Below, in pieces: positions 1,446 through 55,277 of a stretch of DNA of 64,000 nucleotides. Both the position numbers and the translations under genes were made by a program. Each line of letters opens with the position of its first letter. Position 1 is the stretch's first letter. The stretch is from Dictyostelium discoideum. Taxonomy: Eukaryota. The notes beneath the pieces were generated by a model, which searched no databases, was not told where the DNA came from, and worked only from the letters and a program-made list of their open reading frames with translations. The DNA lies in NCBI GenBank assembly GCA_000004695.1, contig CM000154.2, positions 4,320,001-4,384,000 of the forward strand. Reading direction: 5' to 3'.

Positions 1446-1495
<50 letters not shown>
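1446..1495. repeat. (ATT)n microsatellite, ~17 units
   Basis: Perfect trinucleotide repeat read directly in the sequence, abutting the start codon of the 1079-1444 ORF. Confidence 0.95.
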
Positions 1496-1496
<1 letters not shown>

Positions 1497-2111
1497 AAAT
1501 ATAATAATTATTATTATCAATAAATTGGAAATGAAAAAAAAAAAAAATATTTGTTGTATTTATTTTTGTTAATTAATTTTAAAAAAATAAAAAAAAAAAA
1601 AAAAAAAATATTTAACATTGTTGACTTAAGAAATTAAAACTTAAAATAGATTCTTAATTTTTTAAGAAAAAAAAAAAAAAAAAAAAAAAATCTTTTAAAA
1701 TAAAAAAAGATGATATTTAGGGGATCGATTTATTGGAAAATAAAAAAAAAAAACACTTCTGTTTTATTAAATATAAAATTCTATTTTTATTCTCACTTTT
1801 TTTGAGTTACACTAAAAAGGATTAACAGTTTTGATTGATTATATTTGTAAAGAATAATTTTTACCATCAAAAAAAAAGAAAAAAATAAAATAAAATTAAA
1901 AAAATTTATAACAATGATTAAAACCACAAAAATATAATATGAAAAAAAAAAAATATTACTATTGGTTATTAACATTTTATTTTTTTATTTTTTATTTTTT
2001 TATTTTTTATTTTTTTTTTTATTTTTTTTTTTTTGATTGGTAAATAAGTTAAATTTTAATTTTGAGAGGGGATTAGGGGGGGGGGAAAGAGAGAATTAAA
2101 ACTAAAATAAT

Positions 2112-4310: not shown

Positions 4311-5234
4311 TGTGTGTTTTTATTATTATTAATTATTAATTTATTAATATTATTGTTATTATTACTATTACTATTACTACTATTATTATTATTATCTAAT
4401 TCTATTCTATTCTATTTTTATTTATATATTTGTTATTTATTTATCTATTTGTTAATTAAGTTTTTTTTTTTTTTTTTTAAGAATTCTATTTTTAATCTAA
4501 TTTATTTAATCTACTTTTATCTATTTTTTAAACTTTTCTTTTTTATTTTTTTTTTTTTTTTATAATATATTTTATATTTTATTGATTAATTTAAATTATT
4601 ATTGAAAATAATTTATTAATTCACACACACTCTCTCACAGTATACTTTATATGTGTCTGTGGGAAATGTAATAATTTTTTGTTAGTTTTAATTTTTTTTT
4701 TTTTTTTTTTTTGAAATATTTTAAATTTTTTTTTTTTTTTTTTTATTTTAATTTTTTTATTTTAATTTTTTTTTATTTTAATTTTTTATTTTAATTTTTT
4801 TTTTTTTTTTTTTTGAAATTTGGGTGTTCATTGTTAACCACAACGGATTTGTTTTTTGACAGTTAAATTATTTTTAAAATAAAAAAAAAAATAAATTTCT
4901 AGTTTTTAATTGAAAACATTTTAAAATAAAATAAATTTATTTAATAATTTAAATATAAAATATTTATTAAGTTATATATATATATATTTATAATAAAAAA
5001 AAAAAAAAAAAAAAACCTTATTAATTATTTTTGTTTTAATATTATATTTTTTATTTAATTTTTTAAAATTTTTTTTTTTTTATTTTTTTTTTTTTTTTAT
5101 TCGGTAAAAAAAAAAAAAAAATTATTAAATAATAATAAATTATATTTGATTGGTTTAGGTACTATTGTGGCAATATTTATACATGATTTTTTTTTTTTTT
5201 TTAATAATATATTATTAATTAATTAATTTCTTAT

Positions 5235-5507: not shown

Positions 5508-6124
5508 GTTTAAAAAAATATTTTTTAGTTTGTAAAATAAAATTTTATTTTGAGTTTAATTACTTATTTATAATTTTTTTTTTTTTTTTTTTTATTTATT
5601 TCAAAATTAAAATAATTTTTTTTATTATTTATTTAATTATTTATTTTTAATTAAAATTATTTATTAATTATTAAAAAATATTTATTTAATTATTTAATTA
5701 TTTATTTATTAATCTATATTGAAAAATGATTTATAAATTTAAAATTTTTCATTTGTTTAAATAGTTTTTTTAATTTTTTTTGTTGTTATCATTTTTGTTT
5801 TAATTTTATTTTATAATTATTTTTATTTTTTTTATTATTTAATACTAGATAATTTTTTATTTGAAATTTCTAAAATAATTATTATTTAATCTGTGTTGGG
5901 CATAAACCAAAAAAGAAATAATTTTTTTTTATTCAACATCAATTGATCAATACCCTTCACATACATATTTTAGATACCCCAACAATAAAACAACTATAAA
6001 ATTATCCAAACAAACAAAAAAAAAAAAAAAAAAATAATATAAAATAAAAAAAAAAAAAAAAAAAAAAATTCCCACCTCACTCGCAAAGCCATTATGGCTT
6101 CCCACTCTACATTTAACAAATCAA

Positions 6125-6185
6125 TCCACACACTCACACATACACACACACCCACTCACACACCCACTCACACCCACTCACACAT
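6125..6185. promoter_or_regulatory. CA-rich element cluster (ACACCCACTCACAC x3), candidate GBF-type CAE/G-box
   Basis: Tandem near-repeats CACACCCACTCACACACCCACTCACACCCACTCACACA in otherwise >85% AT intergenic DNA. A second C/A-rich patch lies at 6955-7030. Dictyostelium late-gene promoters use C/A-rich (G-box) elements bound by GBF. Assigning this to a target gene is inference. Confidence 0.35.
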
Positions 6186-6493
6186 TTATATATTTATTTA
6201 TATGTATAAAAATTAACACAATCACACTCAAACCCACATAACACAAATATTTCCCACTCACTCTTATTGAAAATAAATCTTATTTTTTTTACATAATAAA
6301 CTATTATTATTGTTATTATTTTATTTTATTTTATTATTTTTATTTTAATGTAACTACTTTTTTTTTTTTTTATTTTTTTTTTTATTTTTTTTTTTTTTTA
6401 TTATTTTTTTTTTTTTACAGAGCACCAACTGTATTGTGTACCACGACAAACTTAATCTTTAACAGTTATACAATAAAAAATTAGTTCCCTTAA

Positions 6494-6524
<31 letters not shown>

Positions 6525-7166
6525 ATGTTGTTGTTAATGAAATTGATGTTGATAATTACACCTTTTGTTGTTTACCATCAGTTAAAGATCAACTAGATTA
6601 GATTTTATATTTTTTTTTTTTATTTTTTTTATTTATTTATTTATTTTAAATTATTTTTTATTATTTTTCCATTCCTTTAAAAGATTTTTTTCATGCATCT
6701 GTGATAAGAAAAAATTATATAAAAATAATAAAAGAGATAAATCTTAACCTCGAGGCAATCACCACTAATTATTAACTAATTTAATTGTTAATTATTATTA
6801 TTATTATTGTTTTTTGTAATGTGTCCAATATTATTGAAGCATCATATAATATTTTTTTTATTATAAATAAATTTAGAAAAATGTGAAAATATTGTTCAAT
6901 TAAAAAAAAAAAAATAAATACTATTTTTTTATATTATAAAAGTTATTGAAATTGATCACTCACATACTAACTCTCTCTCACTCTCTAAATCACTAACACT
7001 CACTAAATCACACACACTCATTACACCAAACTAAATTATAATAAAATGTATTAAGTTATATCACAATTTATCTTACTTTGATTGGAATTTGTGTGGTGTT
7101 TTTATTATTATTATTATTTTTTTTTGGATATTTCTTGCAAATAAAAGAAAATCTATTACTAACAAT

Positions 7167-7206
<40 letters not shown>

Positions 7207-7296
7207 AACAGGATTGAAACATACCAATAGACGAAAAACAAAAGATAAGGATAGACAGATAATAGATCTTATTGACTGATGGTAAACAGATCAACC

Positions 7297-7348
<52 letters not shown>

Positions 7349-7796
7349 ATAATAAAGATTCAGCAATCATCGATAAGGCTCTTTTTTGATTGACTCCTTT
7401 AAACTTTTTTACATTTTATTACCTTTTTTATTATTATTTTTCAAATTTTTTTTTTTTTTTTAATATTATTCTTTTAAAATTATTATTTTTAAACAGAACA
7501 TGGAACAAAAAAACAGAATAAAATTATTTTAAAATAATAATAATAAATAAATTATTTTAAAACTAATAATTATTTTAAGTATAAACAAGAATTAGTTTTT
7601 ATTTTTTTATTTTTCTTTTATTTTCTTTTTATTTTTTTATTTTTTTTATTTTTTTTTTTTTTATTTATTTATTTTTTTTATTTTTATTTTTATTTTTTTT
7701 TTTTTTTTCTAAAAATATATTTTTTTATTTATTTATTTATTTATTTTTATTAATATTATTATTTTTTATTATTATTTATTTATTTTTATTTATTTA

Positions 7797-8937
7797 TTAA
7801 AAATCTTCAGTTAAAAGATAAATTGAAAAATCTGATTGAAGATTAAAGAATTTTGGTTTTGGATTAAAAATTAAATCAACACAACCATCATTAAATTGAT
7901 TGAAAGGTTTAGTGACAAAAGAACCATTAGAGAATAAAGTTGGAGGTTTTAATTCAAATTCATTAATCGAAAGGTAATCTAAGGATTGTAAGATGACAGC
8001 AACTTCTTTTAACATTGCAGGAGAATATCTTTGAAGTCTATGAGTGATTTTCTCTAAAGTTGAACCTGGGTATAAATTTACATTTGTTAGGAAATCGAAA
8101 AACATCTTATTGAATTGACTTCTATTAACTTTACCAAAAACATCAATCCAAGGTTTAATCAATTTCTTTTGTTTATAACTTAAATCAACAAATGGTTTAA
8201 GTTGTTGTTGGTTTTGTTGTTGTTGTTGTTGTTCAACATCAGTTTGATTATTATTATTATTATCAACATCATTTAAATTATTATCTTTGAGATATTGTTG
8301 ATGTAAAGTATAAAATATAGGTATTAAAGAGTCCATGAAAAATTCTTTTGCGACATAAATTTTATGGTGGAATGTGAAATGAGTATCAACAATACCTAAT
8401 GATTTTAATTCTAAAATATAGTTTAATAAATTTTGATAAATATATTGTGAATGATCAATGATATATTCCTCTTCTTTTTGTTCTTGACTATTATTAATTT
8501 TTTGTTCATCATCAATATTATTATTATCAACATCGCCATCTTGATTATTTGATTGATTTAACTTTATTATTAATTTACTAGAATCATCATAATGAATTAA
8601 TTTTTGAAGAATTTCATTAGAATCTGAATTTGAAATTAAATGATTAATGATTTCAATTCTCTTTGCACCATTAACATTTTTACTTTTGATAATTTTGAAA
8701 ACTTCTTGAACCATTAAACAAAACCAACCAATGAATTTACCAGTTCTATCTGAAATATCAATAATTTTTTCAATCTTTAATTTAAATAATTCTTTAAATT
8801 CTTCTGAAATGAATTTATTTTCAAATTCATTTAAAATTAATTCTTTATCATTCATTGTTGTAGTTGTAGTTGTAGTTGATTCATCTGTTTTTCTTCTTTT
8901 ACTATTTTCATTATCATCTTCTTTATCATTATCATCA

Positions 8938-27031: not shown

Positions 27032-29692
<2,661 letters not shown>

Positions 29693-30087: not shown

Positions 30088-31209
30088 ATGATTAAGAATA
30101 ACTATTACTCACTTTTAAGAGATAAAGTAAAGAATGGTGATCCAAATTTATCGTTTGTTTTAAAAACATGTTCATTACCAAAAAACAAAGATTTATTATT
30201 CTTCTCAAAGAGATTTAATTTAGATATTGAAAATGATATTGATTTTTCAAATAATCATTTATACACCTGTAATTTTATAAATACAAATTGTCAAAATAAA
30301 ACTTTTAATTTAGAAAAACCATTTAAATACTCACTTTTTAATATTAGTTATAATAATAATAACAATAAAAATAATAAAGAATTTTTAAACGATAAACAAT
30401 TTTATAAAGCATTATTTAAAAACTATTATAATTATTTTTTATTTCCAGAACAATTACAACTGCAACAACTGCAACAACTGCAACAACAACAGCCAATACC
30501 AATTAATGGTATTATATATAAATTAATAGTTTATTATGATAATGATATTGCATTAGATATAATAATAAATGAATATAAATTATTAAAATTATCAACATCC
30601 AATGATTACCAATCATTAATAATATTAGCAATTAATAATCATTCATTTAAAGTTACAAATTATCTTTATAAATCAATCATTGAAAATCAAATAAAAATAA
30701 ATTTTAATCATTCAATAATTTGGAAATTAATTTTTCCAATTTATAAAATTAATGGAATTGATTTATTATTTTATAAACTAGAAAATCTATTTTTTAGTAA
30801 TAATAATCAAGATAATAATTTAATAATTCATAAATCAACTAAAGTTGATCCAATAATTAAATATTTAATATTAAATAATAATAACAATAATTTAGAATTT
30901 AAATTATCAATTAAATCAGTACCAAAAGAACTTGAATTATTAAATTATAGAATCGATTATTTAGTATATCAAGTAACAGTAGAGACATTATTAAATTCAT
31001 GTTTTACTATTTCAATTCTAAATATATCATCAGAGATTTGGAAATTAAATAAATTAAATTTATGTACAACTAGTTTTGGTTCAAGTGATTCAATTACAGA
31101 TAAATTATTACAAGAAGATTATCAAATATTATCAATTGATCAACTAAATCAATATAAATCCAAGTTAATAAATTTAAATATTTTACCAACTATAATTAGC
31201 GATTTAGAT

Positions 31210-31276
<67 letters not shown>

Positions 31277-32619
31277 GTGTTGAATTTATAATTTCCAAAC
31301 TTATAAAAATGATTACATATTTTTCAGTAGATAAAAATACAATTAATAATCATTTATTTTATTCAATAATGTATTATGATCATAATAAAGATGATGATGA
31401 ATATTATAGTGGTAAGAATAATAATAGCAGTGGTGATAATTTAAAAATAATAAAGAAAAGAAACTTCTTTAAATTAATAACAGGAATAGAAGAGAGAACT
31501 ATACTTTTTAAATATTGTAAAGGTAAAAGAGAATTACAAATTCAATTTTTAAATTATTTTTTAGAAAATCTTGGAAAAACTGTACTTTTAAGTACATTCA
31601 AATTATTTATTGAATTAGATGTTCATTTAGAACTTATGGACATAATTACAAGAGAATTAAAATTAAAACTATTCAACAACATACCAACCCAACCACTCCC
31701 TCCTCATACTCTTACTCAATATTCTTCAAAACCAGTACAACAGCCACAACAACCACTTCAACCAATATTAGTATTTGAAACACCAAATTCAATTAGAATG
31801 TTTGATTATCTTTATAATAATGATAATTTACCGATGTACAGATTTGAAATTAGTGAAATTTTATTTAAAAATAATTTAGTATCCAAAACAACATCTTCAT
31901 CATCATCAAATGATTTCAAAAGAAATGAAAATGAAAATCATTTAAATAATAAATTAATAGCTATTTTAAATCATTTTAAAATAAACTATACATTAGATTA
32001 TGAATCTCAATTGGAAAGAATTAAAAATGAAGTCATATCACCAACATTAAAACAATCAACAATTAATTTCATCTTTAATAATTTTAATGATTTTAAAGAA
32101 ATTATAATATCAATTTTTAATAATAATATTAATCATACTAATAATAATAGCAATATCAATAGTGAAGAAATTTTAAATAATATAAACAAACTAAAATATT
32201 TTTGTAATGGTTTAATAGATTGTTCAATGGATGGATTATTACCATTATATAATTATTTAGAAACTAATAATAGAATAGAGATTGAAGATGATTATGTTTT
32301 AGTTGAAATTTGTAAACGTGGTGATTTAAATGGTTTAGAACAAATTTTAATAAGAAATAATAAGTTAGTAATTAAAAGGGTATTAAGTTGTTCAATAGTG
32401 TTTGGTCAATTGAAGATGTTTGAATATATAAATAGCTCTAAGCATAGTTGGATATTGTCTAATTTATCAAATACTACATCCCCAATTTCATTATATGATT
32501 TTGACCAATTCATTGAATATGCAATCAAATATTGTCAATACCATTTTATTGATTATTTTAGAGACGTTTTAAAATTAAAATTAAAATCACTTTATAACAT
32601 TAATAAATCATTTATTTAA
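30088..32619 (+). CDS. hypothetical 843-aa protein, paralog B of the tandem pair
   Basis: Collinear with 27032-29692 at ~85-90% aa identity over most of the length, with indels in the N-terminal 100 aa and the poly-N tract. It has the same conserved upstream mini-ORF (29857-29970, MESDKNKEILFWNVFRNVYIFKIIKSYLKIKTNSFRIV, ending GTAATT). Confidence 0.6.
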
Positions 32620-32726: not shown

Positions 32727-34592
32727 TTAATTGAACTCTTCTTTAATAATTAAACCATTTGACCATTGTTGGAATGCCCATTGAGTTTTTTGAACACGGT
32801 TACCACCATAAGTGAAATCCATAAACATTTCATATGCTGAATTTTCACCATCGACAATTGTTTTTAAAACTTTAGCTTCATGAATAGTTGCGTTACTGAC
32901 AAAAGCTTCTTCAGCAGCACGGTTGGCAGCTTTACCAACACGATTGGTTGAATCACCTTTTTCAAACATAACAATTTCGTCATGATAGTATTTTTCAAAT
33001 ACTTCTAAAATCTTATTATCTTGAATACCTTTAATAACTGCTTCTAAATTTGCTCTAATATCATGTGTTTTGGTAGTTTCTTCGGTGGTGGTTTGTTCAG
33101 ATGCTACAACAACTGCTGCTGCTTCTTCAACTTTAGTTTCTTCAGTGGTGGCTGATGCTGATGCTGGTGCTGGACCTTTATTTTCATTGAATTCTTCTTT
33201 AATTACTAAACCATTTGACCATTGTTGGAATGCCCATTGAGTTTTTTGGACACGATGGCCACCATAAGTGAAATCCATAAACATTTCATAAGCGGTATTA
33301 TCACCATCAACAATTGTTTTTAAAACTTTAGCTTCATGAATAGTTGCATTATTAACAAATGATTCTTCGGCTTTTCTATTGGCTTCTTTACCAACACGAT
33401 TGGTTGAATCACCATTTTCAAACATAACGATTTCATCATGATAATATTTATCAAATACTTCTAAAATTCTACCTTCTTGAATACCTTTAATAATTGAATC
33501 TAAATTTGCTCTAATATCATGAGTAACTGGTGGAACAACAACTGCTGCTGCTTCTTCAACTTTAGTTTCTTCAGTGGCTGGTGTTGGAGTTGCAGCTGGA
33601 GCTGGACCTTTATTTTCGTTGAATTCTTCTTTAATAATTAAACCATTAGACCATTGTTGGAAACACCATTGAGTTTTTTGAACACGATGACCACCATAAG
33701 TGAAATCCATAAACATTTCATAAGCGGTATTATCACCATCAACGATAGTTTTTAAAACTTTAGCTTCATGAATAGTTGCATTACTAACAAAGGCTTCTTC
33801 GGCTTTTCTATTGGCCTCTTTACCAACACGATTGGTTGAATCACCATTTTCAAACATAACAATTTCATCATGATAGTATTTTTCAAATACTTCTAAAATC
33901 TTATTATCTTGAATACCTTTAATAACTGCTTCTAAATTTGCTCTAATATCATGTGTTTTGGTAGTTTCTTCGGTGGTGCTGGTGGTGGTGGCTGGTGCTG
34001 GAGTTGCAGCTGGAGCTGGACCTTTATTTTCATTGAATTCTTCTTTAATTACTAAACCATTTGACCATTGTTGGAAACACCATTGAGTTTTTTGGACACG
34101 ATGGCCACCATAAGTGAAATCCATAAACATTTCATAAGCGGTATTATCACCATCAACAATAGTTTTTAAAACTTTAGCTTCATGAATAGTTGCATTACTA
34201 ACAAAGGCTTCTTCGGCTTTTCTATTGGCTTCTTTACCAACACGATTGGTTGAGTCACCATTTTCAAACATAACGATTTCATCATGATAATATTTTTCGA
34301 ATACTTCTAAAATCTTATTATCTTGAATACCTTTGATGATTGCTTCTAAATTTGCTCTAATATCATGAGTAGTTGTTGTTGTTGGTGTACTAGTAGCAGT
34401 GGTGGTGGTGTTATTTGTATTTGGTGATGTTTCAGTTGCAACAATTGTTGTTGTAGTTGCTTCAGTAGTTGGAACTGGAGTGGTTGTAGTTGGTTCTGTT
34501 GTTGGTGCTGCGACTGGTTCTGTTGATTTTTTATTATCTTTGGATTTTTTAGATTTACCTAAACCCAAAACTTTCTTAAATTTCTTGAACAT
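32727..34592 (-). CDS. 621-aa protein with four tandem NTF2/SnoaL-like domains (~140-aa units) behind a Lys-rich N-terminus and Thr-rich linker
   Basis: The four-times repeated unit is THDIRANLEA(I/V)IKGIQDNKILEVFEKYYHDEIVMFENGDSTNRVGKEANRKAEEAFVSNATIHEAKVLKTIVDGDNTAYEMFMDFTYGGHRVQKTQWCFQQWSNGL(I/V)IKEEFNENKGPAPA. The YE.FMDFTYGG...Q..W.FQ.W.NG.I..E.F pattern is typical of the NTF2-like/SnoaL polyketide-cyclase-like fold. The DNA repeats are >90% identical. Confidence 0.6.
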   Translation of the reverse strand: MFKKFKKVLGLGKSKKSKDNKKSTEPVAAPTTEPTTTTPVPTTEATTTTIVATETSPNTNNTTTTATSTPTTTTTHDIRANLEAIIKGIQDNKILEVFEKYYHDEIVMFENGDSTNRVGKEANRKAEEAFVSNATIHEAKVLKTIVDGDNTAYEMFMDFTYGGHRVQKTQWCFQQWSNGLVIKEEFNENKGPAPAATPAPATTTSTTEETTKTHDIRANLEAVIKGIQDNKILEVFEKYYHDEIVMFENGDSTNRVGKEANRKAEEAFVSNATIHEAKVLKTIVDGDNTAYEMFMDFTYGGHRVQKTQWCFQQWSNGLIIKEEFNENKGPAPAATPTPATEETKVEEAAAVVVPPVTHDIRANLDSIIKGIQEGRILEVFDKYYHDEIVMFENGDSTNRVGKEANRKAEESFVNNATIHEAKVLKTIVDGDNTAYEMFMDFTYGGHRVQKTQWAFQQWSNGLVIKEEFNENKGPAPASASATTEETKVEEAAAVVVASEQTTTEETTKTHDIRANLEAVIKGIQDNKILEVFEKYYHDEIVMFEKGDSTNRVGKAANRAAEEAFVSNATIHEAKVLKTIVDGENSAYEMFMDFTYGGNRVQKTQWAFQQWSNGLIIKEEFN

Positions 34593-37823: not shown

Positions 37824-38105
37824 AATTTACCATCTTAACTTCTTTTAATCAAAAAATAAAAAAAAACAACTTTTTTTTGGTAAATCTTGGAATTAGATAA
37901 ATAAAACAAATGTAGGGGGAACAAAAATCCTAAAATTTCAAAACTTAATTTTTTAAGAAGTATATATTTTTTTATTTATTTTAAATTGAATTTTTTTTTT
38001 TTTTTTTAGATTTTTTTTTTTTATTGACAATGACTTTATTTTTTTTTTTTTTTGTTTGCATTAAATTAATTTCCCACCACACACCCCGCACAATAAATTA
38101 TCACA

Positions 38106-40111
38106 ATGGATAATAATAATAATCCAAATAATAATAATCCAAATAATAATAATAATAATAATAATAATGATTATAATAAATGTCATTATCATCCGACTAA
38201 TGAAATAAATTTAATTTGTTTAGAAGCAGAGTGTAAATTAATGCCATGTTGTGTAGCTTGTATGTCAATTAGTGGGAAACATCATAGACATAGTTTTGAT
38301 TTAGTTAATAATTGTATTTCAAAAATTATTGATAATTTTAAAAAAATATATCCAAATATTTCAAAAAGAATTAATGATTATAAAGAATTATCAGAAAAAT
38401 CAAATTCGATTCATTCAAATTCTAAATTAGATTTTTATAAAAATATTGCTCTTAATGATAAAGTTTTTGCAAATTTAATTAATACTTTAAGTTCAATTCA
38501 AAGAAATATAAAAAATGAATTACAAACAAATCAAGATAAAAATTATGAACTAAATTCAAATGAATCTTTACTAATAACTAATAATAGTCAAATACTTTCA
38601 AATATTTTAAATAATGTCTCAATTGATCATTTGGATGATTCAATTAATAATGATAATAATGATAATATTAATTTAGTTAAATATTATCAACAATCTTTAG
38701 AAGTTTTAAATGATGAAATCATTGAAATTGATTATCAAAATTCTTTACTAACTTTCGATCTTCAACTAATTGAAGAATTAAAAGAAAATTTTAAAAAAAT
38801 TTATTCAATTAATCAATCAGATAATATTAATATTGAAGATGAAGAAGAAGAAGAGGATGAAAAATTTAAGATTGGAATTGATGAAAATGGCAATGGGTTT
38901 GTAAAGAGTATGTATGGTGTGTGTAATTTTAAAGAGAAGGGGGTGGATGATGATGATTATTAATATGAATTTTTTTTTATTTTTTATTATTTTAAAATTT
39001 AGATGAAAATAAAAAGTATTATATTTATTCAGAGAATAGTGAACAAGAAGATAAAGATTCAGTTGCATTTGGAGAAGATTGTGGTAATTTATTAAACATT
39101 AGATCAAATAGAGTATTGAAGAATGTAATGTTGTTAGATGGATTTAAAGAGAGTTTAGGAGTTGGTGTATTACCAGATAGTATTGAATATTTGGAGATAT
39201 GTGATATTAAAACACCTTTGGTGGTTGGATCAATACCATCAAGTGTAAGAACATTGGTATTAAATGATGGATTTAGTCAACCATTAGAACCTGGTATTAT
39301 ACCATCAAGTGTAAAAAGTTTAGATTTACATAATATTAAAAATCGATTAAATGTTGGTTCAATTCCAAGATCAGTTGAAAATTTGGTTTTAAATAATGGA
39401 TTTAATCAACCACTTTTAGTTGATGTAGTATCGTTAATATCAGATGGTGTAAAATTTTTAACATTACATAAAATTAAAAGCCAATTAAAGGTTGGCTCAA
39501 TTCCAAAAACAGTAAAGAAATTAAGTATTGGTGATGGATTTTCACAATATTTGGAAAGTGGAATTGTTCCAAATGGTGTAATTACATTATATATTAATAA
39601 TATTAAACAACAGTTACAAATTGGATCAATTCCAACTTCTGTAAAATTTGCAACTTTTGGTGAAGGATTTAGTCAATTGCTTTCACCTGGCATTATTCCA
39701 AAGGGTGTAATGATGTTGTTTTTCTATAACATTAAATGTCCATTGGTTATTGGTTCAATTCCAATTTCAGTTACATGGCTAACTTTTTATAATGGTTTCA
39801 ATCACTCAATATCACCTGGTATAATCAGTAAAGGTGTGGAAAGATTATTATTACATGATATTAAACAACCATTAGAAATGGGTTCAATACCAACAACAGT
39901 AACTCACATCGTACTTGAAGATGGATTCAAACAAGCACTAACACCAGGAATCATTCCAAATTCAATAAAAGAATTAACTTTAAAAAATGTAAATCTTCAA
40001 TTAGTTGAAGGTTCAATACCAAGACAAATTCCAAGAATTATTTTAAATAATTTTAATGAATCATTAGAAAATTGTAATTTAGATCAATCCGTAGAAATAA
40101 AAATAGAGTAG
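38106..40111 (+). CDS. B-box zinc finger + coiled-coil + FNIP-repeat protein, array copy 1 (intact, ~626 aa): join(38106..38907,39033..40111)
   Basis: Exon 1 has poly-N, then the B-box [37 protein letters not shown], a helical region and an acidic run, and ends ...[15 protein letters not shown]. The intron is GTATGT...TTATTCAG (phase 1). Exon 2 has 13 or more ~22-aa FNIP repeats (GSIP.SV..L.L.DGFNQ.L.PG.IP..V). The splice position matches the other copies by homology. Confidence 0.65.
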
Positions 40112-40113
40112 GG

Positions 40114-40163
<50 letters not shown>

Positions 40164-40378
40164 GATTTAATAAAAATTAAATTTTAAAAAAAAAAAAAAA
40201 AAAAATTCCTTTTTAAAAATAAAATAAATAAAATTATTAAATCGATGTGCAATTTTTTTTTTTTTTTTTTTTTTTAAAATTTTAAGTTTATTAAATCATG
40301 ATTGTTTTTTTTTTTAACCACCCACACCACAAACCATCAACAAAAACACTATTTCCATTTTTTTTTTTTTTTAATTTT

Positions 40379-40420
<42 letters not shown>

Positions 40421-40446
40421 AATCAATAACAAATAATATATTAAAA

Positions 40447-41181
40447 ATGAATAAAGATAATAACAATAACAAATGTTCATTTCATCCAAATAAAAATTTA
40501 GAACTTTTATGTTTTAATTGTAAATTTATTCCATGTTGTATGCACTGTATTTCTCAACATGGTGAACACCATGGTCATAAAACAAATTGTATAGATTCAA
40601 TTGAAACATCAAATATTCTCAAAATGATGAATTTATTTAAAAATGATATTATTCCAAAATTAAAAGAAATAGTTGAAAATGATAAACAAATAATCAATAA
40701 ATCTGAAAATATTTATAATGAAATTAATCAACAATATGAAAATAATAAAATTTTAGTAACAAACGAATTTAAAAAGTTTCATACATTAATTCAAATTAAT
40801 CAATTAGATATTGAAAATCAATTAAGAACAACATTTGATGAAAATACAATAATATATACTATTATTAATTCATCAATCAATAATAATAATAATTATAATA
40901 TTAATGATGATAATAATTATGGTATTAATATAGAATCAATAGGTAATAAATTAGATAATCTCAATGATACTCACTTACAATATTGTAATGAAAATCAAAT
41001 TTATAACTGGCTTGAGAATCAAGATATTTATCAATTATTTAAAAAATATCAACAATCAACCTTAATAGTTAATAATAAAAATAATATTGAAAATTTAAAT
41101 AAATTAAAAGAATATAATAATCAATCAATAGTATTTAAAATAATGAATGAAATTAAAAATAATTTAAAATTAATTTATTAA
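40447..41181 (+). CDS. B-box/coiled-coil protein, exon-1-only member of the array (244 aa; truncated copy 2)
   Basis: N-terminal B-box [37 protein letters not shown]. It is collinear with exon 1 of the intact copies up to ...NNLKLIY and then hits TAA where the others continue (EFDNINN...KFIKS + intron). No FNIP exon follows; the coding relic follows instead. It is either a stand-alone short protein or a pseudogene. Confidence 0.4.
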   Translation: MNKDNNNNKCSFHPNKNLELLCFNCKFIPCCMHCISQHGEHHGHKTNCIDSIETSNILKMMNLFKNDIIPKLKEIVENDKQIINKSENIYNEINQQYENNKILVTNEFKKFHTLIQINQLDIENQLRTTFDENTIIYTIINSSINNNNNYNINDDNNYGINIESIGNKLDNLNDTHLQYCNENQIYNWLENQDIYQLFKKYQQSTLIVNNKNNIENLNKLKEYNNQSIVFKIMNEIKNNLKLIY

Positions 41182-41339
41182 ATTTTATGAAAAAATGAAA
41201 AGTTGGTGTAAATATTTTTATTTTTTTATTTTTTTATTTTTTTATTTTTTTATTTTTTTTTTTTTTTTATCCAGATTTTAATTTTTTATTTTTTATTCAT
41301 CCCTTTTTTATTATATTTTAGTTATTTTATTTAACAACA

Positions 41340-42180
41340 AACACTGTTCTTTTTCTTTTATTTCTTTAAGTTTATCTTTGTCTAATTCAATGCCAAAACC
41401 ATCATTATATGTTTCTTGAAGATCAGCTAACATACAGAGTATTGACGATTTTGTTTAAATGATCCAAATTTCCTCGGTATGTTGGAGTTATTTTAAAATG
41501 ATTAATTTTTAAAAAAAAAGTTTTCCACATACACACTATTGGAGCTTACAAAATTAGGTAAAGATATATCTAGAAAAAAAAATAATAAAATAATAAAAAA
41601 TAAAAAATACCAATAATATAATTATTTTAATAATAATAAAAAAAAAAAAAAATAAAAAAAATAAAAATAAAATAAAATTAATAACAAAGTATTAAAAGTA
41701 AGAGATTTGGTTATTTAAATAATTACCCAATATTGGAAAGCTATCATGTTTACGAATAATTTTACCATTATTATAGTATTGTGGCTCTATTTTGGTATTT
41801 TCTAGTATATATTTGATCATGAACGGAACCTGGGAATCCCTCAGGATGTAGTAACAATAATCTGTATGATCTAGTGCATACCTCACAATGAAATTTGACC
41901 ACATGACTTTACTTTTACCAGAATAATAATTTTTTTTTGGATTTGATGAGTGGGAGTTTCAATATCAATAGAGGTAGATTCAGCAGCAATCGCACGATAA
42001 AGCACATTAGATATAGGATGTTTTAAAAAGCCAACTGATTCAACAAGTTTATCTCTTTTCCATTATTTCCTTGCATACAACTCAAAGTGAATGGTTGACT
42101 ATAGTGATTTTGAAATGTTTTTGGACTAATACCAAAAGTAACACATATCTCATAAATTGGAAGATATTGTTTCCAATATA
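41340..42180 (-). pseudogene. GC-richer degraded coding relic (possible transposase/HTH-containing element or gene fragment)
   Basis: The minus-strand translation gives long coding-like stretches broken by stops: ...LPIYEICVTFGISPKTFQNHYSQPFTLSCMQGNNGKEINLLNQLAF*...KVMWSNFIVRYALDHTDYCYYILRDSQVPFMIKYILENTKIEPQYYNNGKIIRKHDSFPILGNY... and MLADLQETYNDGFGIELDKDKLKEIKEKEQCLLLNK. Composition is clearly less AT-rich than neighbouring intergenic DNA. I cannot place the family. Confidence 0.3.
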
Positions 42181-42491
42181 AGAGAGTCTAACACAAAAAA
42201 AAAAAAAAAAATAAATAATGTTATTAATTAATTCATTTTATTTTTTACATTTTTTATTTTTTTTTTCTGTTTATAATTTTTTTTTTTTTTTACTTTGTTT
42301 AATTTAGGACTTGGTGTAATTTTACAAAATTATTTAATTTAATTTAATTTAATTTAATTTAATTTAATTTAATTTTTTTTCATTTTTTTTGTAAAAAAAT
42401 AAAAATTTTCACACCAACTTTTCATTTTTACATAAAATTTTTTTTATTTTTTTTTTTATTTTTTTTATTTCTATTTCGAAAAATTATTAAG

Positions 42492-43550
42492 ATGGTTAAA
42501 AAAATAAGAGTTATTATACCCTTTATGTTGGAAAAGGCTTATGAAGATATAAATAATAATGATTATATAAATAAAAAAAATATTTACGGGATTTGGGTAT
42601 ATAAAACAAATAATACAAAAAAAATGTATATTGAAACAAAATCAGAACAAGGTTCACTTCCTCTTCTAGTTCATTTACAAAATGAACATTTATCGTCTAG
42701 AAAAGTCGAGTTATGGCTTGTTGAAAATAAAATTTATATACCAAAGTTAAGAGAAAAATATTTATATTTTTTAAAATGCAAAAAATGGTAAGATAAATTT
42801 ATTTATTTATTAAAATAATAATATATTAATATTTGTTATAATAAGTCAAAAAAGAAAAGATAAAAGAAATAAAAAAAAAAACCAAATTAAAGAAAAAGAA
42901 ATTTACATTAAAGTTGAAGATAATAAAGAAATTAGCGAAAACGAACGTGATTTAATTGAAGAAAATAAAAAAGAAGTTAGCGAAAATGAATGTGATTTAA
43001 TTGAAGAGGATGATGATGAAATATTATGTGAAGATGATGAAATACCATGTGGACAACCAATCTCATCGGAAGAAGATGAGCCAACTCGTTATACTTTAAC
43101 ATTGATTTCAAAAACGATCAAATTGAAAGAAATAAAAATGACAATGGTACAAATAAAAAAGAAAAATTAAAAATTGAAATTGATGAAAATAAATTTAAAT
43201 TTATAATGAGTAAGTGTAAATAAAAATTTAATAATTATTATTATTTTATATTAATATTATAATATATGTGTATATATTTATATATATATATATTATAAAT
43301 AGATGATAATAAAAAATATTATATATATTCAAAGAATAGTAAATTTTCAGATTATCAAGATAAAGATTCAATTGCATTTGGAGAAGATTGTGGTAGTTTA
43401 TTAAAATTTAAATTAAAAACAAATATAAAGAGGGTTATGTTATTAGATGGATTTAAAGAAAGTTTAGAACCAGGTGTATTACCAAATGGTATTGTACATT
43501 TAGAAATGAACTGGTATAAAAAAAGTTTTTGAGGGAAAAAAAAAAAGGAG

Positions 43551-43581
<31 letters not shown>

Positions 43582-43925
43582 AAAAAAAAAAAAATAAATT
43601 AATCCACATTTTTAGTAATTTTATAAAGAGTAAAAAAAAAATTTAATTTTCCTTTTTTTTAAAAAATAAATCCACTACTTTTGTGTGTAAACAAACTAAA
43701 ATGGCTTCTTAAGAATTTATTTTTTCCCCTTTTTAGTTTTTTTTTTATACCTGAATCTGGAAAATTAAAAATTCATAATTTTGAAATTATTATAAAATAA
43801 TGTTTAAAAAAAAGGGGTAATGGTGAAAAAATTAATAAAAAAATTACGATTAAAAAAATTATTTTAAATGATTTTCCAGAAGAATCATTAAAAGTTTGTA
43901 AACTAAATAAATCTATAGAGATAAA
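42492..43925 (+). pseudogene. chimeric, decayed array copy (unrelated 99-aa ORF + exon-1 tail + truncated FNIP exon)
   Basis: 42492-42791 is a free-standing ORF, MVKKIRVIIPFMLEKAYEDINNNDYINKKNIYGIWVYKTNNTKKMYIETKSEQG.... Next come an internally duplicated acidic segment (EISENERDLIEENKKEVSENECDLIEE), then ...[19 protein letters not shown], the exon-1 tail of the family. Then come a family-type intron, an FNIP exon 2 start at ~43330 (...[52 protein letters not shown]) and the extreme C-terminus at 43800-43925. Most of exon 2 is deleted. Confidence 0.5.
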
Positions 43926-44232
43926 AATTTTTAAATAAAATAAAACAAAAAACTATTATATAAACAAAAAAATAGAAATAAATAAATTAATTTTCATTTG
44001 TAAAATTGGATTTAGTCTTGATTGGTTTAAAAATTTGATAATATTATACCATATGTTTTGTCATTGGAATTTTTTTAAAAGAATAAGTTTGATAAGAAGA
44101 AAATATATGTTAGGTTTTCTTTGAAGGTAATTAATGATCATCAAACCTTTCATTTTCAGTATTGATGAAGTGAAATTAGGAATTGGATACATTTTATAGT
44201 TTTTTTTTTTTTTAATTTCATATGAATTTTAC

Positions 44233-44263
<31 letters not shown>

Positions 44264-44268
44264 AAAAA

Positions 44269-44960
44269 TTGATTGAATTTGTATACCATTTGAACCTAAA
44301 AGATGGATTCTCTCAAACATTAAAGCCAGGTGTTATTCCAAAAACTATTAGAATTGTAACATTACACCAAATAACAAAACCATTAGTAATTGGATCAATA
44401 CCAAATACAGTCTTAAGAATAGAATTTCATAAAGGCTTTAACCAATTCCTTACTCCAGGTATTATATCAGAAGGTGTTAAATCATTAGAATTTTAATGAT
44501 TTAACAGTTTTAAGAATACAATTTCATAAAGGATTTAACCAATTACTTACAGCTGGTATTATACCAGAAGGTGTTAAATCATTAGAATTCCACCAAGTTA
44601 AATACTTATTGATTGTCGGTTCAATTCCTAACTCGATTTATTTATTATGTTTACTGGATGGCTTTAATCAAATAATATCACCAGGCATAATTACTAATGG
44701 AGTGTGCGAGTTAGGTTTGGGAGAAATTAAACAACCATTATTTGTGAATTCAATACCTAATTCCGTCACCAAATTTAATATCATTAATGGATTTTATCAC
44801 TAACGCCTGGAATCATTTCAAATTCAATAAAGAAATTAACTCTATGTACTGTAAATATATGAAATTAGTTGAAGGGTCAATTCCATAAAATTATTTTATA
44901 TGGTAATGTTGAACCATCATCTTTAGATGTTTGTAAATTAGATAGATATGTACAAATAAT
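44269..44960 (+). pseudogene. FNIP-exon fragment with internal ~110 bp duplication, frameshifts and stops (decayed copy)
   Basis: ...[66 protein letters not shown] and then the same segment duplicated. The 3' part carries several stops (...NGFYH*RLESFQIQ*...). No exon 1 is associated. Confidence 0.6.
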
Positions 44961-45064
44961 AAAAAATAATTTATAATAATAGTAGAATCTTTGTAAATAA
45001 TAAAGGATCAAAACAAAAAAATAAAAATAAAAATAAATAAATAAATTAAATAAATATATAATTT

Positions 45065-45420
45065 GGTTCATCAATTTTATCAAATATTCTATTAATTTAA
45101 TTTGAATTTGTTTTTTTTATTTTTTTTATTTATTTATTTTTATATTTATTATTTAACTATTTAATTAATTTTATATTTTCTTTTGTTTCAATCATACAAT
45201 TAATTCACTCGAGATATAAATATATTCTTGTCTTTGAGTGATCATTTATTAATGTATGAATTTTTAAAAATTTTCAATTAATCCATTGCCTTTGTTGTTG
45301 ATGTTGTTGGTAGTCTAGTGGATTTGATAATATTATAATTTATTTATCTTAATATAAAAAGTAACCCAATTGATTCAAAAAAAATAAAAAATAAACCAAT
45401 TCAGTCTTTTTTTGTTTTTT
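45065..45420. repeat. conserved array spacer element, copy 1 (~350 bp), containing a fragment homologous to the 60155-62317 coding sequence
   Basis: ~85% identical to 47765-48130. It contains CACTCGAGATATAAATATATTCTTGTCTTTGAGTGA and CCATTGCCTTTGTTGTTGATGTTGTTGGTAGTCTAGTGGATTTGATAATATT, which match 60755-60850 (within the coding region of the minus-strand coiled-coil gene). Confidence 0.6.
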
Positions 45421-45470
45421 ATTTTAATATCTAAATTTTATAATATCTCAATTTTTCACTCAAATTTTTA

Positions 45471-45517
<47 letters not shown>

Positions 45518-45655
45518 TTTTTAAGATTTTTTAATTTTATTATAATACGATCACTGTCTACAATAATAATAACACATTAAACTATTATCAAAAATAATAA
45601 AAATTTTTACCCACACATTTTTTTTTTTTTTAATCAATAACAAATAATATTAAAA

Positions 45656-47557
45656 ATGAATAATGATTTAATATTAGATAATAACAATAACAATAAGAAA
45701 TGCACACTTCATAGAAATAAAATTTTAGAACTTTTATGTTTAGATTGTAAATTTATTCCATGTTGTACTCAGTGTTTTTCCAAGATGGTCAACACCATGG
45801 TCATAAAACAAATTGTATGGATTCAAAAGCAACATCAGATATTCTCAAAATGGTGAATTTATTTAAAAATGATATTATTCCAAAATTAAAAGAAATAGTT
45901 GAAAATAATAAACAAATAATTAATGAATCTGACAATATTTATAATGAAATTAAACAACAATATGAAATTAATAAAAATTTGGTAATAGATGAATTCAATA
46001 AATTTCATAAAATACTTCAAATTATTCAATTAGATATTCTAAAGCAATTAGAAACAACATTTGATGAAAATACATTAGTAAATACTATTATTAATTCATC
46101 AATCAAAAATAATGATAGTTATGGTATTACTATGGAATCAATGAGTAATGAAATAGATAATCTCAAGCATACTCACTTACAATATTGTGATGAAAATCAA
46201 ATATATAACTGGCTTGAAAATGAAGAAATTTATCAATTAATTAAAAAATATCAACAATCATCATTAATAGTAAATAATAAAAATTATATTGGTAGTTTAA
46301 ATATATTAAAAGAATATAATAATCAATCAATACTATTCAATAATTAAATAATTGATGATATTAAAAATAATTTAAAATTAATTTATGAGTTTGATAACAA
46401 TAAAAACAACCAAAATAAAAACAATAATCGTATTAATTATAATAAAAATGAAAAATTAAAAATTGAAATTGATGAAAATAATTTTAAATTTATAAAGAGA
46501 AAGTAAGAATTTAAATTATAAATAAAATTTAAATTATTATTAATATATATCAATATATATTATAAATAGATGATAATGAAAAATATTATATATATTCAAA
46601 GAATAGTGAATTTTCAAATCATAAAGATAAAGAGTCAATTGCATTTGGAGAAGATTGTGGTAGTTTATTAAAATTTCAATCAAAAACAAATTTAAAGTTA
46701 TGTTATTGGATGAATTTAAAGAAAAATTAGAACCGGGTGTATTACCAAATGGTATAAAATATTTGGAAATAGGAGATATTATAACACTATTAGTAGTTGG
46801 ATCGATACCACCTGGTATCATTCCTTCTTATCCACCAAATGAAGGTCATTGGTTTAAATAATTTTCATTTCCATTGTTCTTAGGTGTAAGATTCCTAACA
46901 TTACATAAAATTAAAAGTGAAGTAAACATTGGATCAATTCCAGTGTCAGTATCGCGTTTGAATCTAAAAGATGGGTTCTCTCAAACATTACAGCCAGGTG
47001 TTATTCCAAAAACTGTTAAAACTGTAATATTACAGGAAATAACAAAACCATTAATAATTGGATCAATACCAAATACAGTTTTTACAATAGAATTTCATAA
47101 AGGCTTTAACCAATTACTTACAGCAGGTATTATACCAGAAGGTGTTTATTCATTGGAATTCCACCAAGTTAAGGACTTATTGATTGTCGGTTCAATTCCT
47201 AACTCGATTTATTCATTATTTTTAAAGGAAGGCTTTGATCAAAAAATATCACCAGGTATAATTACCAATGGAGTGGGCCTATTACATTTAGGAGAAATTA
47301 AACAACCATTATTAGTGAATTCAATACCAAACTCTGTCACCAACTTGTATATCACTAAAGGATTTAATCAATCACTAACACCTGGAATCATTCCAAATTC
47401 AATAAAGGAATTAACATTGGGTACTGACAACATACAATTAGTTGAAGGATCAATTCCAAAAACAATTCAAAAAATTATTATAAGTGGAGATATAGAACCA
47501 TCATTCTTAAATGTCTGTAAATTAGATAAATCTATACAAATAGATAGCAATTATTAA
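45656..47557 (+). pseudogene. B-box + FNIP array copy with frameshifts in both exons
   Basis: Exon 1 (45656-~46503) is broken into two or more frames (B-box ...CTQCFSK / MVNTMV... shift; ...SILFNN* and then ..[16 protein letters not shown] in another frame). Family intron. Exon 2 (46560-47557) has a deletion and frameshift near ttaaagttatgttattggatgaatttaaag, and only the 227-aa distal part (46874-47557) is open. Confidence 0.6.
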
Positions 47558-47723
47558 TAATAGTATACTTTTTTATTTATTAAAGTATTAACTTATCTCA
47601 AATATTTTAATTTTACAAAGAATAAAAATAAAATAAAAAATAAAAAGGGAAGAAGGAGAAAATATTGAATAGTGGAATTCCATTTGTAAATATTAAAGGA
47701 TCAAAAACATGTGAAAAAAAATA

Positions 47724-47756
<33 letters not shown>

Positions 47757-47764
47757 AATAAATA

Positions 47765-48130
47765 TAAAGTTGGGTTCATCAATTTTATCATATATTTCAA
47801 TTAATTTAATTTGAATTAATTTTTTAATTTTATATTTTTATTATTATTATTCAAAGATTTAATTGGTTTAATTTTCTTATGTTTCAATCATACAATTAAT
47901 TCACTTGAGATATCAATATATTCTTGTCTTTGAGTGAACATTTATTAATATATGAATTGAAATTTTCATTTAATCCGTTGCCTTTGTTGTTGATGTTGTT
48001 GGTAGTCTAGTGGATTTGATAATATTATATTTATCTTAAAATTGCTCCTGATCGACACTCAAAATTAAAAGGTTCGATGATCAATAATTACCTTAATTGA
48101 AAAATTAACCCAATTGATTCAAAACCAATA
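47765..48130. repeat. conserved array spacer element, copy 2
   Basis: See 45065-45420. It shares a 29-bp exact block GAGATATCAATATATTCTTGTCTTTGAGT with 60757-60785. A third, shorter relic lies at ~50400-50470. Confidence 0.6.
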
Positions 48131-54003: not shown

Positions 54004-55277
54004 TTGGATTTGATTTTTTTTAACTGAATCATTTAAAGTTAAAACAAATGAGCATTTATCTGGTTGTGTTGCTTTGATACAATAGTTACCTACTTATAAA
54101 TGGTTGAAATTTACCATCAATATTGCTGATTGTTGAAGGCACTTTTGGTAATGTAATTGATACATTTTATTTACAGTCACTTGATTTTATTTCAAATTTG
54201 TATGTTTAAAAAAAAAAAAAAAAAGAAAAATAAACTAATTCAATCAAATCAATCACTTTTTTGATTTTTTTTTAAAGACAAAAAGATTTATAAATTTTAT
54301 AAATTAGAGATGGTGTAATCTGAAAAAAAAAAAAAAAATGAGAAAAATAAAAAATTTATTTTTTGATTATTTTTTTATTTATTTATGTTTAACATTTAGT
54401 TGGATTCAAACCATCCTGTTAAATCAATTTTCTTTTTTTTTTTTCGGGATATTGTTAATTGAAAACTTCAAACATCCCAAATATTGTATGGCTTTTAATA
54501 TCAGAATTAATTTTTTTAATTCTTTTTGATAGCTGTTTTAGTTCTTTTTTGTTGAAAATTCAAATTTAAATTGGTGATAATATCATCAGCAATTAAATTT
54601 AAATTTTTAATTAATTCTGATTTTTTTAAAATGACTACACCAACTTTGTATGGAAGCTCATATAAAAAATTTTTATTAAATGAATATGCTGTAGAAATTT
54701 TTTTTTTTTTCTAATGAAAGATTGTTTAAATCTTATTTTGGATTGATAAAAATAGTTTTTTTTTATCTCCAAACAAAGTTAAGAGATATAATATAAATTT
54801 AAATTTAAAAGATTTATTATTATATTTACATTTTATATAATGTTATCCAACAATTGATCAACTCGTAAAATATCATAAAATGTCTATTTTTAATATAGTT
54901 TTATTATTGATGGTAAATAATAAAACTATATTAAAAAAATTAAATAATGTAAAAAAAAACATTTTAATTTTAAATGATTTAAATCCAATAAATAGTAAAG
55001 ATAGGTTATCTCAAATACCATTAATTATTGATGGTATTAAAATATTTTCAGTTGTGGATACAACATATTTAATATACAGAATTAGATGAACATGCTAGAA
55101 TAATTATTTTTATTTTTAATATTTGGATAATTTTTAATCCAACGAGAGCTAACAAATAAAATCTAAATCATTTTTAATTTATTCATACATTTGTTTTTTT
55201 TTTTTTTTTTAATTTTTTTTTTTTTTTTTAATTTTTTTTTTTTTTTCAAATTTGATTTCTAATTTATAAAATCATAT

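Follow-up and report, generated by a model that had tools for sequence, protein, structure and literature searches.

What broke the second copy of a tandem gene array on chromosome 5 of Dictyostelium discoideum? The stretch of DNA analyzed here (the window, 64,000 nucleotides in all) carries at 38100-60050, on the forward strand, a tandem array of two-exon genes in which exon 1 encodes the B-box part of the protein and exon 2 the FNIP repeats. When exon 1 of copy 2 is compared with its paralogues, the homology runs to 41178-41184 (...KNNLKLIY) and restarts at 43131-43152, i.e., the array is interrupted within exon 1 from 41179 to ca. 43130 (about 1.95 kb), at a place where the paralogues hold only 55-70 bp of sequence. 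Window positions 38000-48000 have a colinear counterpart, 99.8% identical, in another D. discoideum assembly (L009). An earlier note, made from the sequence alone, had flagged 41340-42180 as a coding relic at the point where copy 2 loses its second exon, and had suggested that a transposable element or a transduplicated gene piece disrupted the array. The placement needs revision, as the interruption lies inside exon 1 and remnants of exon 2 occur downstream (43437-43522, 43816-43935, and 44281-44976); the suggestion itself is supported on both counts, with a transposon at 41180-42440 and a gene fragment at 42446-43086. We consider it highly probable (about 0.9) that a two-gene cut-and-paste transposon of the PIF/Harbinger type, found in the D. 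discoideum species group, is represented at 41180-42440 by a dead copy that internal deletion has made non-autonomous. PIF/Harbinger elements are eukaryotic cut-and-paste DNA transposons, e.g., PIF in maize, Ping/Pong with mPing in rice and Harbinger3_DR in zebrafish, from which the host gene HARBI1 is derived. A dead copy of this sort is an ordinary kind of event, and not a surprising one in kind.

Identity of the relic and its lesions

On the reverse strand, three-frame translation of 41250-42260 gives stretches that resemble protein, change frame and are split by stops, much as the earlier note had described them. The peptides that it quoted hold up only in part, two of them being partly out of frame through read-through: according to the homologues, the true frame at 41900-41800 reads SHVVKFHCEVCTRSYRLLLLHPEGFPGSVHD and not KVMWSNFIVRYALDHTDYCYYILRDSQVPF, and the peptide beginning GISPKTFQNHYSQPFTLSCMQ... 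is in frame over its first third only. Stitched across the frame changes, the translation of the relic matched a D. discoideum protein (P0001) at E = 7e-52 with 62% identity and a D. firmibasis protein (P0002) at E = 4e-43, both of which carry the Pfam domain PF13359 (DDE_Tnp_4). At the DNA level the relic aligns over ca. 1.2 kb with loci that encode the homologues or hold full-length copies, and over aligned exon positions it is ~93-94% identical to a nearly intact D. discoideum copy (locus L002). The raw pieces of the relic gave nothing in Pfam beyond a sub-threshold match to HTH_Tnp_4 (E = 0.18); the family thus became recognizable because Dictyostelium homologues and correct splicing were used, Pfam searches of the raw pieces being insufficient. 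Judged by this homology, the segment 41327-42187 (reverse strand) is a pseudogene of a DDE_Tnp_4 transposase (PIF/Harbinger, IS5-like). Its base composition, said to differ from the local background, does so when set against the flanks (GC 0.31 in 41700-42150 vs. 0.12-0.18) and equals that of the array exons (0.25-0.32), and therefore marks coding sequence and not foreign DNA.

Both ends of the element have been kept. The copy (1,261 bp) is bounded by terminal inverted repeats (TIRs) of 49 nt, whose arms at 41180-41228 and 42392-42440 are identical at 46 of 49 positions (Table 1). A 15-mer from the core of the repeat, ATGAAAAGTTGGTGT, has exactly two exact occurrences in the window, inverted and on either side of the relic, and a scan allowing up to two mismatches returned three matches vs. 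0.46 expected. The third of these (54637-54651) was rejected as a terminus, its context matching at only 24 of 48 positions. Homologues and flanking repeats, whose joint absence the earlier note had named as the case against an insertion, are therefore both at hand; the check for flanking structures that it recommended turned up TIRs at both ends, between flanking triplets (left ATT, right TTT) that fall short of a perfect target duplication.

Between these ends the transposase gene is heavily damaged. What is left of exon 2, i.e., the helix-turn-helix (HTH) region and the first half of the DDE domain, is 93.9% identical to exon 2 of L002 over the aligned positions, and has suffered five frameshifting indels (-5, -5, +2, -1, and -2 bp), two in-frame ones (-3 and -15 bp), a TGG>TGA stop and a GAC>GAA change that turns the first catalytic Asp into Glu. 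The exon 3 remnant is without 87 nt at its 5' end, missing as deletions of 12 and 75 bp, which include GDRAY and with it the second catalytic Asp; it carries further indels of +1, -3, -2, and -1 bp (all but the -3 frameshifting), and keeps the glutamate of VYVEN as well as the position of the stop codon. The D-D-E triad is hence not intact, with Asp1 changed to Glu, Asp2 deleted and the final Glu kept. Exon 1 (53 codons) is absent; the sequence that replaces it includes an (AAATT)n microsatellite (~42325-42374), and a vestigial ATG is possible within 42188-42391. Also absent is a stretch of ca. 2.3 kb that in full elements lies between the transposase-5' TIR and the transposase gene and comprises a second open reading frame (ORF2) with its flank. 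Altogether the copy bears eight frameshifting indels and one nonsense codon, and only one of its three catalytic residues is left; given the stop and the eight frameshifts, it encodes nothing.

Full-length elements and the defective form

The annotated gene models of the homologues P0001, P0002, and P0004 suffer from wrong splicing or truncation, and the structure of the transposase gene was therefore re-derived from three-frame translations of three loci, i.e., L001 (D. firmibasis), L002 (D. discoideum), and L003 (D. cf. discoideum). The gene has three exons, the second encoding the HTH-like region and the first catalytic half, and the third starting with GDRAYISLP and containing RVYVENFF. 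The spliced L002 protein (327 amino acids) matched DDE_Tnp_4 at E = 2e-22 and 80 bits (cut-off 24.8) over profile positions 2-157 of 158, with a weaker match to DDE_Tnp_1 (Pfam, 6e-8) and weak ones to HTH_Tnp_4 and the IS5 family; the spliced L001 protein matched DDE_Tnp_4 at E = 2e-20, above the gathering score. Intact full-length transposases carrying PF13359 are found in D. cf. discoideum (P0007, 327 amino acids) and D. firmibasis (P0008, 326 amino acids), and the putative triad (AADST, GDRAY, VYVEN) is intact in both of them and in L002. A search of solved structures with the transposase found nothing. By these profile matches and motifs the transposase is of the PIF/Harbinger (IS5-like) type.

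The terminal sequence AAATTTTATGAAAAAATGAAAAGTTGGTG... occurs in inverted pairs in L002 (3657/7448), L003 (3438/7752), and L007 (3693/7826), singly in L004, and singly and diverged in L001, while the match in L008 is doubtful (6 of 30 positions differ). One D. cf. discoideum genome holds both L003 and L007, on separate contigs; the two share 95-98% identity over ~4.1 kb, with homology that begins and ends exactly at the tips of the TIRs. In all three full elements the triplets on the two sides are identical (AAT/AAT, AAT/AAT, and ATT/ATT), i.e., there is a 3-bp target duplication. The usual target duplication of PIF/Harbinger elements is TWA (TAA/TTA), also of 3 bp, and their second ORF usually encodes a Myb/SANT-like DNA-binding partner. 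In D. firmibasis the intact transposase genes are accompanied by a recognizable repeat at one end only. The L001 copy (6001-7372) has an open three-exon frame in which the catalytic Glu is replaced by Lys (RAYVKNFF), with a single recognizable TIR, and may be decaying or immobilized; the gene model behind its annotated protein, P0002, is wrongly spliced and misses the start of the GDRAY exon.

The full element consists of two divergently transcribed genes, the transposase and ORF2 (~340-365 amino acids), the latter situated between the left tip and the transposase gene. ORF2 is conserved in L002, L003, L007, and the D. firmibasis locus L008, and D. cf. discoideum carries it at least four times, on separate contigs. 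ORF2 itself has no match in Pfam or NCBIfam; an AlphaFold2 model built on a five-sequence alignment reached a mean predicted local distance difference test score (pLDDT) of 46, with three N-terminal helices at 70-85, and Foldseek found no match to it in the PDB at E <= 0.001. A role of ORF2 as a Myb-like partner thus found no support in profile searches, in the low-confidence model or in the structural search.

Several lesions of the window copy recur elsewhere in D. discoideum. Two other relics (L004a and L006) share with it the deletions of 15, 12, and 75 bp, a 1-bp deletion and an extra base in GGAAAAC(T)n; the TGA stop, the D>E change and the sequence replacing exon 1 are present in L004a as well. 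Lesions common to all three must predate the copies, so that the defective form was itself copied. It appears from this pattern that a non-autonomous derivative of 1.26 kb has propagated, most simply by trans-mobilization through its intact ends, segmental duplication being a possible route. No AX4 protein of the transposase family came up in our searches, though the AX4 proteome is in the databases searched, which is consistent with AX4 keeping only dead copies. All members of the family that we saw come from the D. discoideum species group.

Two of the loci deserve a separate description. In L004, two relics stand head to head (4456-5119, reverse strand; 5767-6499, forward strand), annotated as "hypothetical proteins" of 107 amino acids (P0003 and P0005), and both show the TGA stop and the D>E change. 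The L002 contig is a transposon-rich cluster, in which the nearly intact element is accompanied by other transposon genes (185-1216, 1481-3169, and 7842-8235). They include a hAT-type gene pair (Dimer_Tnp_hAT, ZBED1_RNase-like), a reverse-transcriptase fragment and a second, clearly different DDE_Tnp_4 gene (284 amino acids; motifs CVLGDSAY and RRVYVEQFFG); D. discoideum has at least two Harbinger-like lineages.

The composite insertion and its possible origins

To the right of the second TIR the insertion continues with 685 bp of a third origin, that is, from neither the array nor the transposon. An exhaustive HMMER search together with BLASTP found its relatives: it holds the 5' fragment of a gene like DDB_G0294192, from a small gene family of Dictyostelium, with BLASTP values of 3e-24 against the AX4 product of that name (P0015, encoded on a 12-kb unplaced contig) and 8e-12 against P0014. 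In the fragment, a 99-codon ORF exon (42492-42791) is separated by a probable short intron from an acidic stretch that reaches to ...SSEEDEPT (43086), after which ~45 bp that match neither part precede the restart of the array. The fragment showed no homology with array copies or full elements, and filtered blastn and tblastn revealed no relative among the fetched loci (an unfiltered tblastx of 42446-43230 was swamped by AT-rich low-complexity noise), and a DDB_G0294192-like gene adjoins the element in none of these loci. We also considered the entire 1.95 kb as a single mobile unit and rejected it, the best pseudo-TIR sought in 43040-43140 having a local score of 23, which is reached by 21% of background segments. 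In the C-terminal halves of P0014 and P0015, which the window fragment lacks, residues are spaced in an H...D...Q...C-like way (HFSVILI, HLDSL, QEQ, NNCGFF); the Ulp1/C48-like protease that this spacing brings to mind for P0014 found no support in Pfam, NCBIfam or PDB sequence searches and was dropped.

The insertion explains why array copy 2 is broken and corrects two local gene models. The B-box ORF of 244 codons, called as a 244-amino-acid gene (40447-41181) in L009, is a truncation product closed by a TAA (41179-41181) that was made at the junction with the transposon end. The exons of AX4 DDB_G0290607 (P0012, 241 amino acids) map to 42624-42758, 42838-43146, 43335-43514, and 43816-43935 with 91-100% identity, and its product has only a sub-threshold FNIP match in Pfam. 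By the origin of its parts, this model is a chimera: the 5' fragment of the DDB_G0294192-like gene comes first and is followed by the exon 1 tail, by the opening 29 codons of the FNIP exon 2 and by what is left of the end of the FNIP exon.

What else might the relic be? The earlier note had set an ordinary spliced host gene, with introns accounting for the stops, against its own proposal. The true transposase gene does possess two AT-rich introns, one of which (41570-41726) falls inside the flagged interval, but the 1-, 2-, and 5-bp indels and the TGG>TGA change lie within exon sequence of the intact copies, and this excludes the spliced-gene reading, to which we give practically no credence; exon 1 with the context of the start codon is gone as well, the GDRAY motif is deleted, and the AX4 proteome yielded no protein of the family. 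Very improbable, too, is descent from a domesticated HARBI1-like host gene, even though gene predictors call members of the family ordinary "hypothetical proteins" and the D. firmibasis L001 copy stands among housekeeping genes with its single recognizable TIR and its Glu>Lys replacement in the catalytic motif. A host gene of that kind would be single-copy and syntenic, devoid of TIRs and duplications, whereas we found near-identical copies (95-98%) at non-syntenic sites in one genome, TIRs that bound the window copy and those of L002, L003, and L007 on both sides, 3-bp duplications around the full copies, a second ORF that travels linked to the transposase, and defective derivatives at several loci.

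A dead Harbinger-type copy thus remains our reading of what the relic is, and the mode of its arrival is a separate matter; the order of events and the way in which transposon and gene fragment became joined can only be inferred. Exon 1 of copy 2 would have come to hold both the defective Harbinger-type derivative and the gene fragment by one of two routes. A donor segment, in which the element already sat in the promoter of a DDB_G0294192-like gene, could have been copied in by break repair or ectopic recombination; or the element could have transposed into exon 1, with a later event adding the fragment at its right end. By either route the host gene is split in two, into a truncated B-box ORF ending in a transposon terminus and a chimeric ORF starting in the captured fragment and continuing into the exon remnants of the array. 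Somewhat short of an even chance, in our estimate, is the possibility that the relic is a mere passenger, i.e., that a pre-existing transposon-gene segment was pasted into exon 1 as filler, which would be a rival account of how the relic arrived and not of what it is. The composite make-up of the insertion (transposon, gene fragment and ~45 bp of neither) suits filler, as do the missing target duplication at this copy, the loss of ~55-70 bp of exon 1 relative to the paralogues and the position of the right TIR ~50 bp upstream of the fragment's ATG, which fits an earlier insertion into the promoter of that gene elsewhere. The left border, however, is the tip of the TIR to the base, as expected of transposase-mediated joining and a matter of luck for random filler, and no donor locus was found, the DDB_G0294192 family not lying beside the element in the fetched loci. 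The base-exact left junction favors the involvement of transposase at the left end, and the composite structure with its missing duplication favors a component of repair or recombination.

Certain observations weigh against the identification of 41180-42440 as a dead Harbinger-type copy. The flanking triplets of this copy differ, and the array restarts ~690 bp beyond the right TIR and not at the TIR, so that simple transposition is only one possible way for the window copy to have entered the array. The target duplication of the full elements is AWT and not TWA, known from three elements only and in an AT-rich genome, and ORF2 has no Myb/SANT domain detectable by Pfam, the AlphaFold2 model or Foldseek. 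Finally, the family is set apart from the catalogued transposons of D. discoideum by published descriptions only, not by consensus sequences, and may already carry a name.

Copy 2 and its surroundings have further peculiarities. A second disruption of copy 2 spans 43523-44980, where the FNIP exon 2 runs only to 43522, with a short piece from its end surviving at ~43816-43935; the partial exon-2 copy at 44281-44976 contains frameshifts and an internal tandem duplication of 86 bp (44407-44492 and 44504-44589, 90.7% identical). Upstream of the array, and unrelated to the transposon relic, two adjacent and very similar paralogous genes (27032-29692 and 30088-32619, forward strand) encode proteins of 886 and 843 amino acids, and adjoining them is an ORF of 621 amino acids (32727-34592, reverse strand) with four near-identical repeats of ~140 amino acids, likewise unrelated to the relic. 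An Rfam scan of the entire window gave no matches.

Table 1 Features of the interrupted array copy, of the transposon relic within it and of the full elements compared with it (coordinates are those of the window unless a locus is named)
Feature	Position	Strand	Basis or remark
Array copy 2 exon 1, 5' part, cut short	40447-41181	+	List of ORFs (244 codons); array homology ends at 41178-41184
TIR at the transposase-3' end, AAATTTTATGAAAAAATGAAAAGTTGGTGTAAATATTTTTATTTTTTTA	41180-41228	+	Inverted repeat; the same sequence ends elements in L002, L003, L004, and L007, diverged in L001
Transposase exon 3 remnant	41327-41569	-	Alignment to L002, L007, and L001; protein alignment
Transposase intron 2, AT-rich, retained	41570-41726	-	Aligned with L002, L007, and L001; GT...AG borders conserved
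Transposase exon 2 remnant (HTH region and first half of DDE domain)	41727-42187	-	Alignments and homology search
Intron 1, 3' part, then replacement sequence in place of exon 1	42188-42391	-	Alignment to L002 and L007
TIR at the transposase-5' end	42392-42440	-	Inverted repeat partner of 41180-41228
Right TIR CATAAAATTT joined to TTTTTATTTTTTTTTTATTTTTTTTATTTCTATTTCGAAAAATTATTAAGATGGT, 5' region of DDB_G0294192-like gene	Right junction of the window copy		
DDB_G0294192-like gene, 5' fragment	42492-43086 (homologous stretch 42446-43086)	+	Deep protein search, BLASTP
Array copy 2 exon 1 tail	43131-43222	+	Array homology restart; in frame with the preceding gene fragment; belongs to the DDB_G0290607 model
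Full element, D. discoideum	L002 3657-7448		Full elements span 3.8-4.3 kb
Full elements, D. cf. discoideum	L003 3438-7752; L007 3693-7826		

Relation to known transposons

The DNA transposons catalogued in D. discoideum are, as far as Glockner et al. 2001 is relayed in PMC5633606, Tdd-4/5, DDT-A/B/S and thug-S/T, and their transposases are described as resembling no known transposases (PMC5633606); Tdd-4/5 encode Ginger-type integrase-like proteins (PMC2836005). The family described here has in common with Tdd, DDT, and thug the host, the low number of copies, a length of a few kb, inverted ends, and short defective derivatives. Unlike the integrase-like proteins of Tdd-4/5 (PMC2836005), its transposase is of the DDE_Tnp_4 type, with DDE_Tnp_4 and DDE_Tnp_1 but no rve domain in Pfam, and unlike the catalogued transposases as characterized in PMC5633606 it clearly resembles known ones, the comparison with DDT being by description only. 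The relic's transposase is of neither the Tdd nor the retroelement type. Membership in thug-S could be probed indirectly: the text of PMC4894637 places a "miRNA-like_D3" in an intron of thug-S and its Table 2 lists miRNA_can_D3, the two being the same only by assumption. With up to three mismatches, miRNA_can_D3-5p and -3p are absent from the window, L002, L003, and L007. In L006, at ~4484-4521, both arms of the hairpin match (with 1 and 3 mismatches); the site is outside the L006 relic, ~1.5 kb away from this Harbinger-like sequence, and adjoins another B-box/FNIP gene. No paper linking Harbinger or PIF to Dictyostelium transposons was found in the accessible literature.

We tentatively put forward the elements as a PIF/Harbinger-type family of the D. 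discoideum group that no catalogue lists yet, with a recognizable transposase, a lineage-specific ORF2 that is not detectably Myb-like, intact copies that may be active in both D. cf. discoideum and D. firmibasis, and seemingly nothing but propagated defective derivatives in AX4; that all of this holds together is doubtful enough to be called a possibility. Activity is suggested by the copies in the sister taxa being intact and near-identical (95-98%). If the proposal is true, a model organism would gain a native and definable TIR/transposase system, its intact copies would be candidates for a homologous transposition tool, and a Harbinger-type element with a non-canonical partner protein would be at hand. 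For the D. discoideum group, the present data document the ends, target duplication and gene content of a putative PIF/Harbinger-type family, with intact members in sister taxa and propagated defective ones in D. discoideum. Present annotations treat several members as hypothetical host proteins, in some cases with wrong splicing, and if the family is indeed uncatalogued, Dictyostelium repeat libraries and gene annotations would need a small correction.

Among more distant systems, the bacterial IS5 family shows a remote transposase homology (NCBIfam transpos_IS5_4, E = 1e-6, below the cut-off; Pfam DDE_Tnp_1, 6e-8), but the similarity stays far under the family thresholds, the Dictyostelium transposase gene has spliceosomal introns and the element has two genes. 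From PIF/Harbinger the element departs in its duplicated triplet, AAT or ATT in place of TAA or TTA, and in an ORF2 that has a predicted three-helix N-terminus only and no detectable Myb, SANT or trihelix domain; to these differences we add the divergent transcription of the two genes, the finding of the family in the D. discoideum group only and the catalytic death of the window copy. The features that the two have in common are the DDE_Tnp_4 transposase with an N-terminal HTH-like region, the D...D...E arrangement (AADST, GDRAY, VYVEN) of the intact copies, short TIRs with a 3-bp target duplication, a second ORF within the element and, as in the copy that interrupts the array, internally deleted non-autonomous derivatives that keep their ends.

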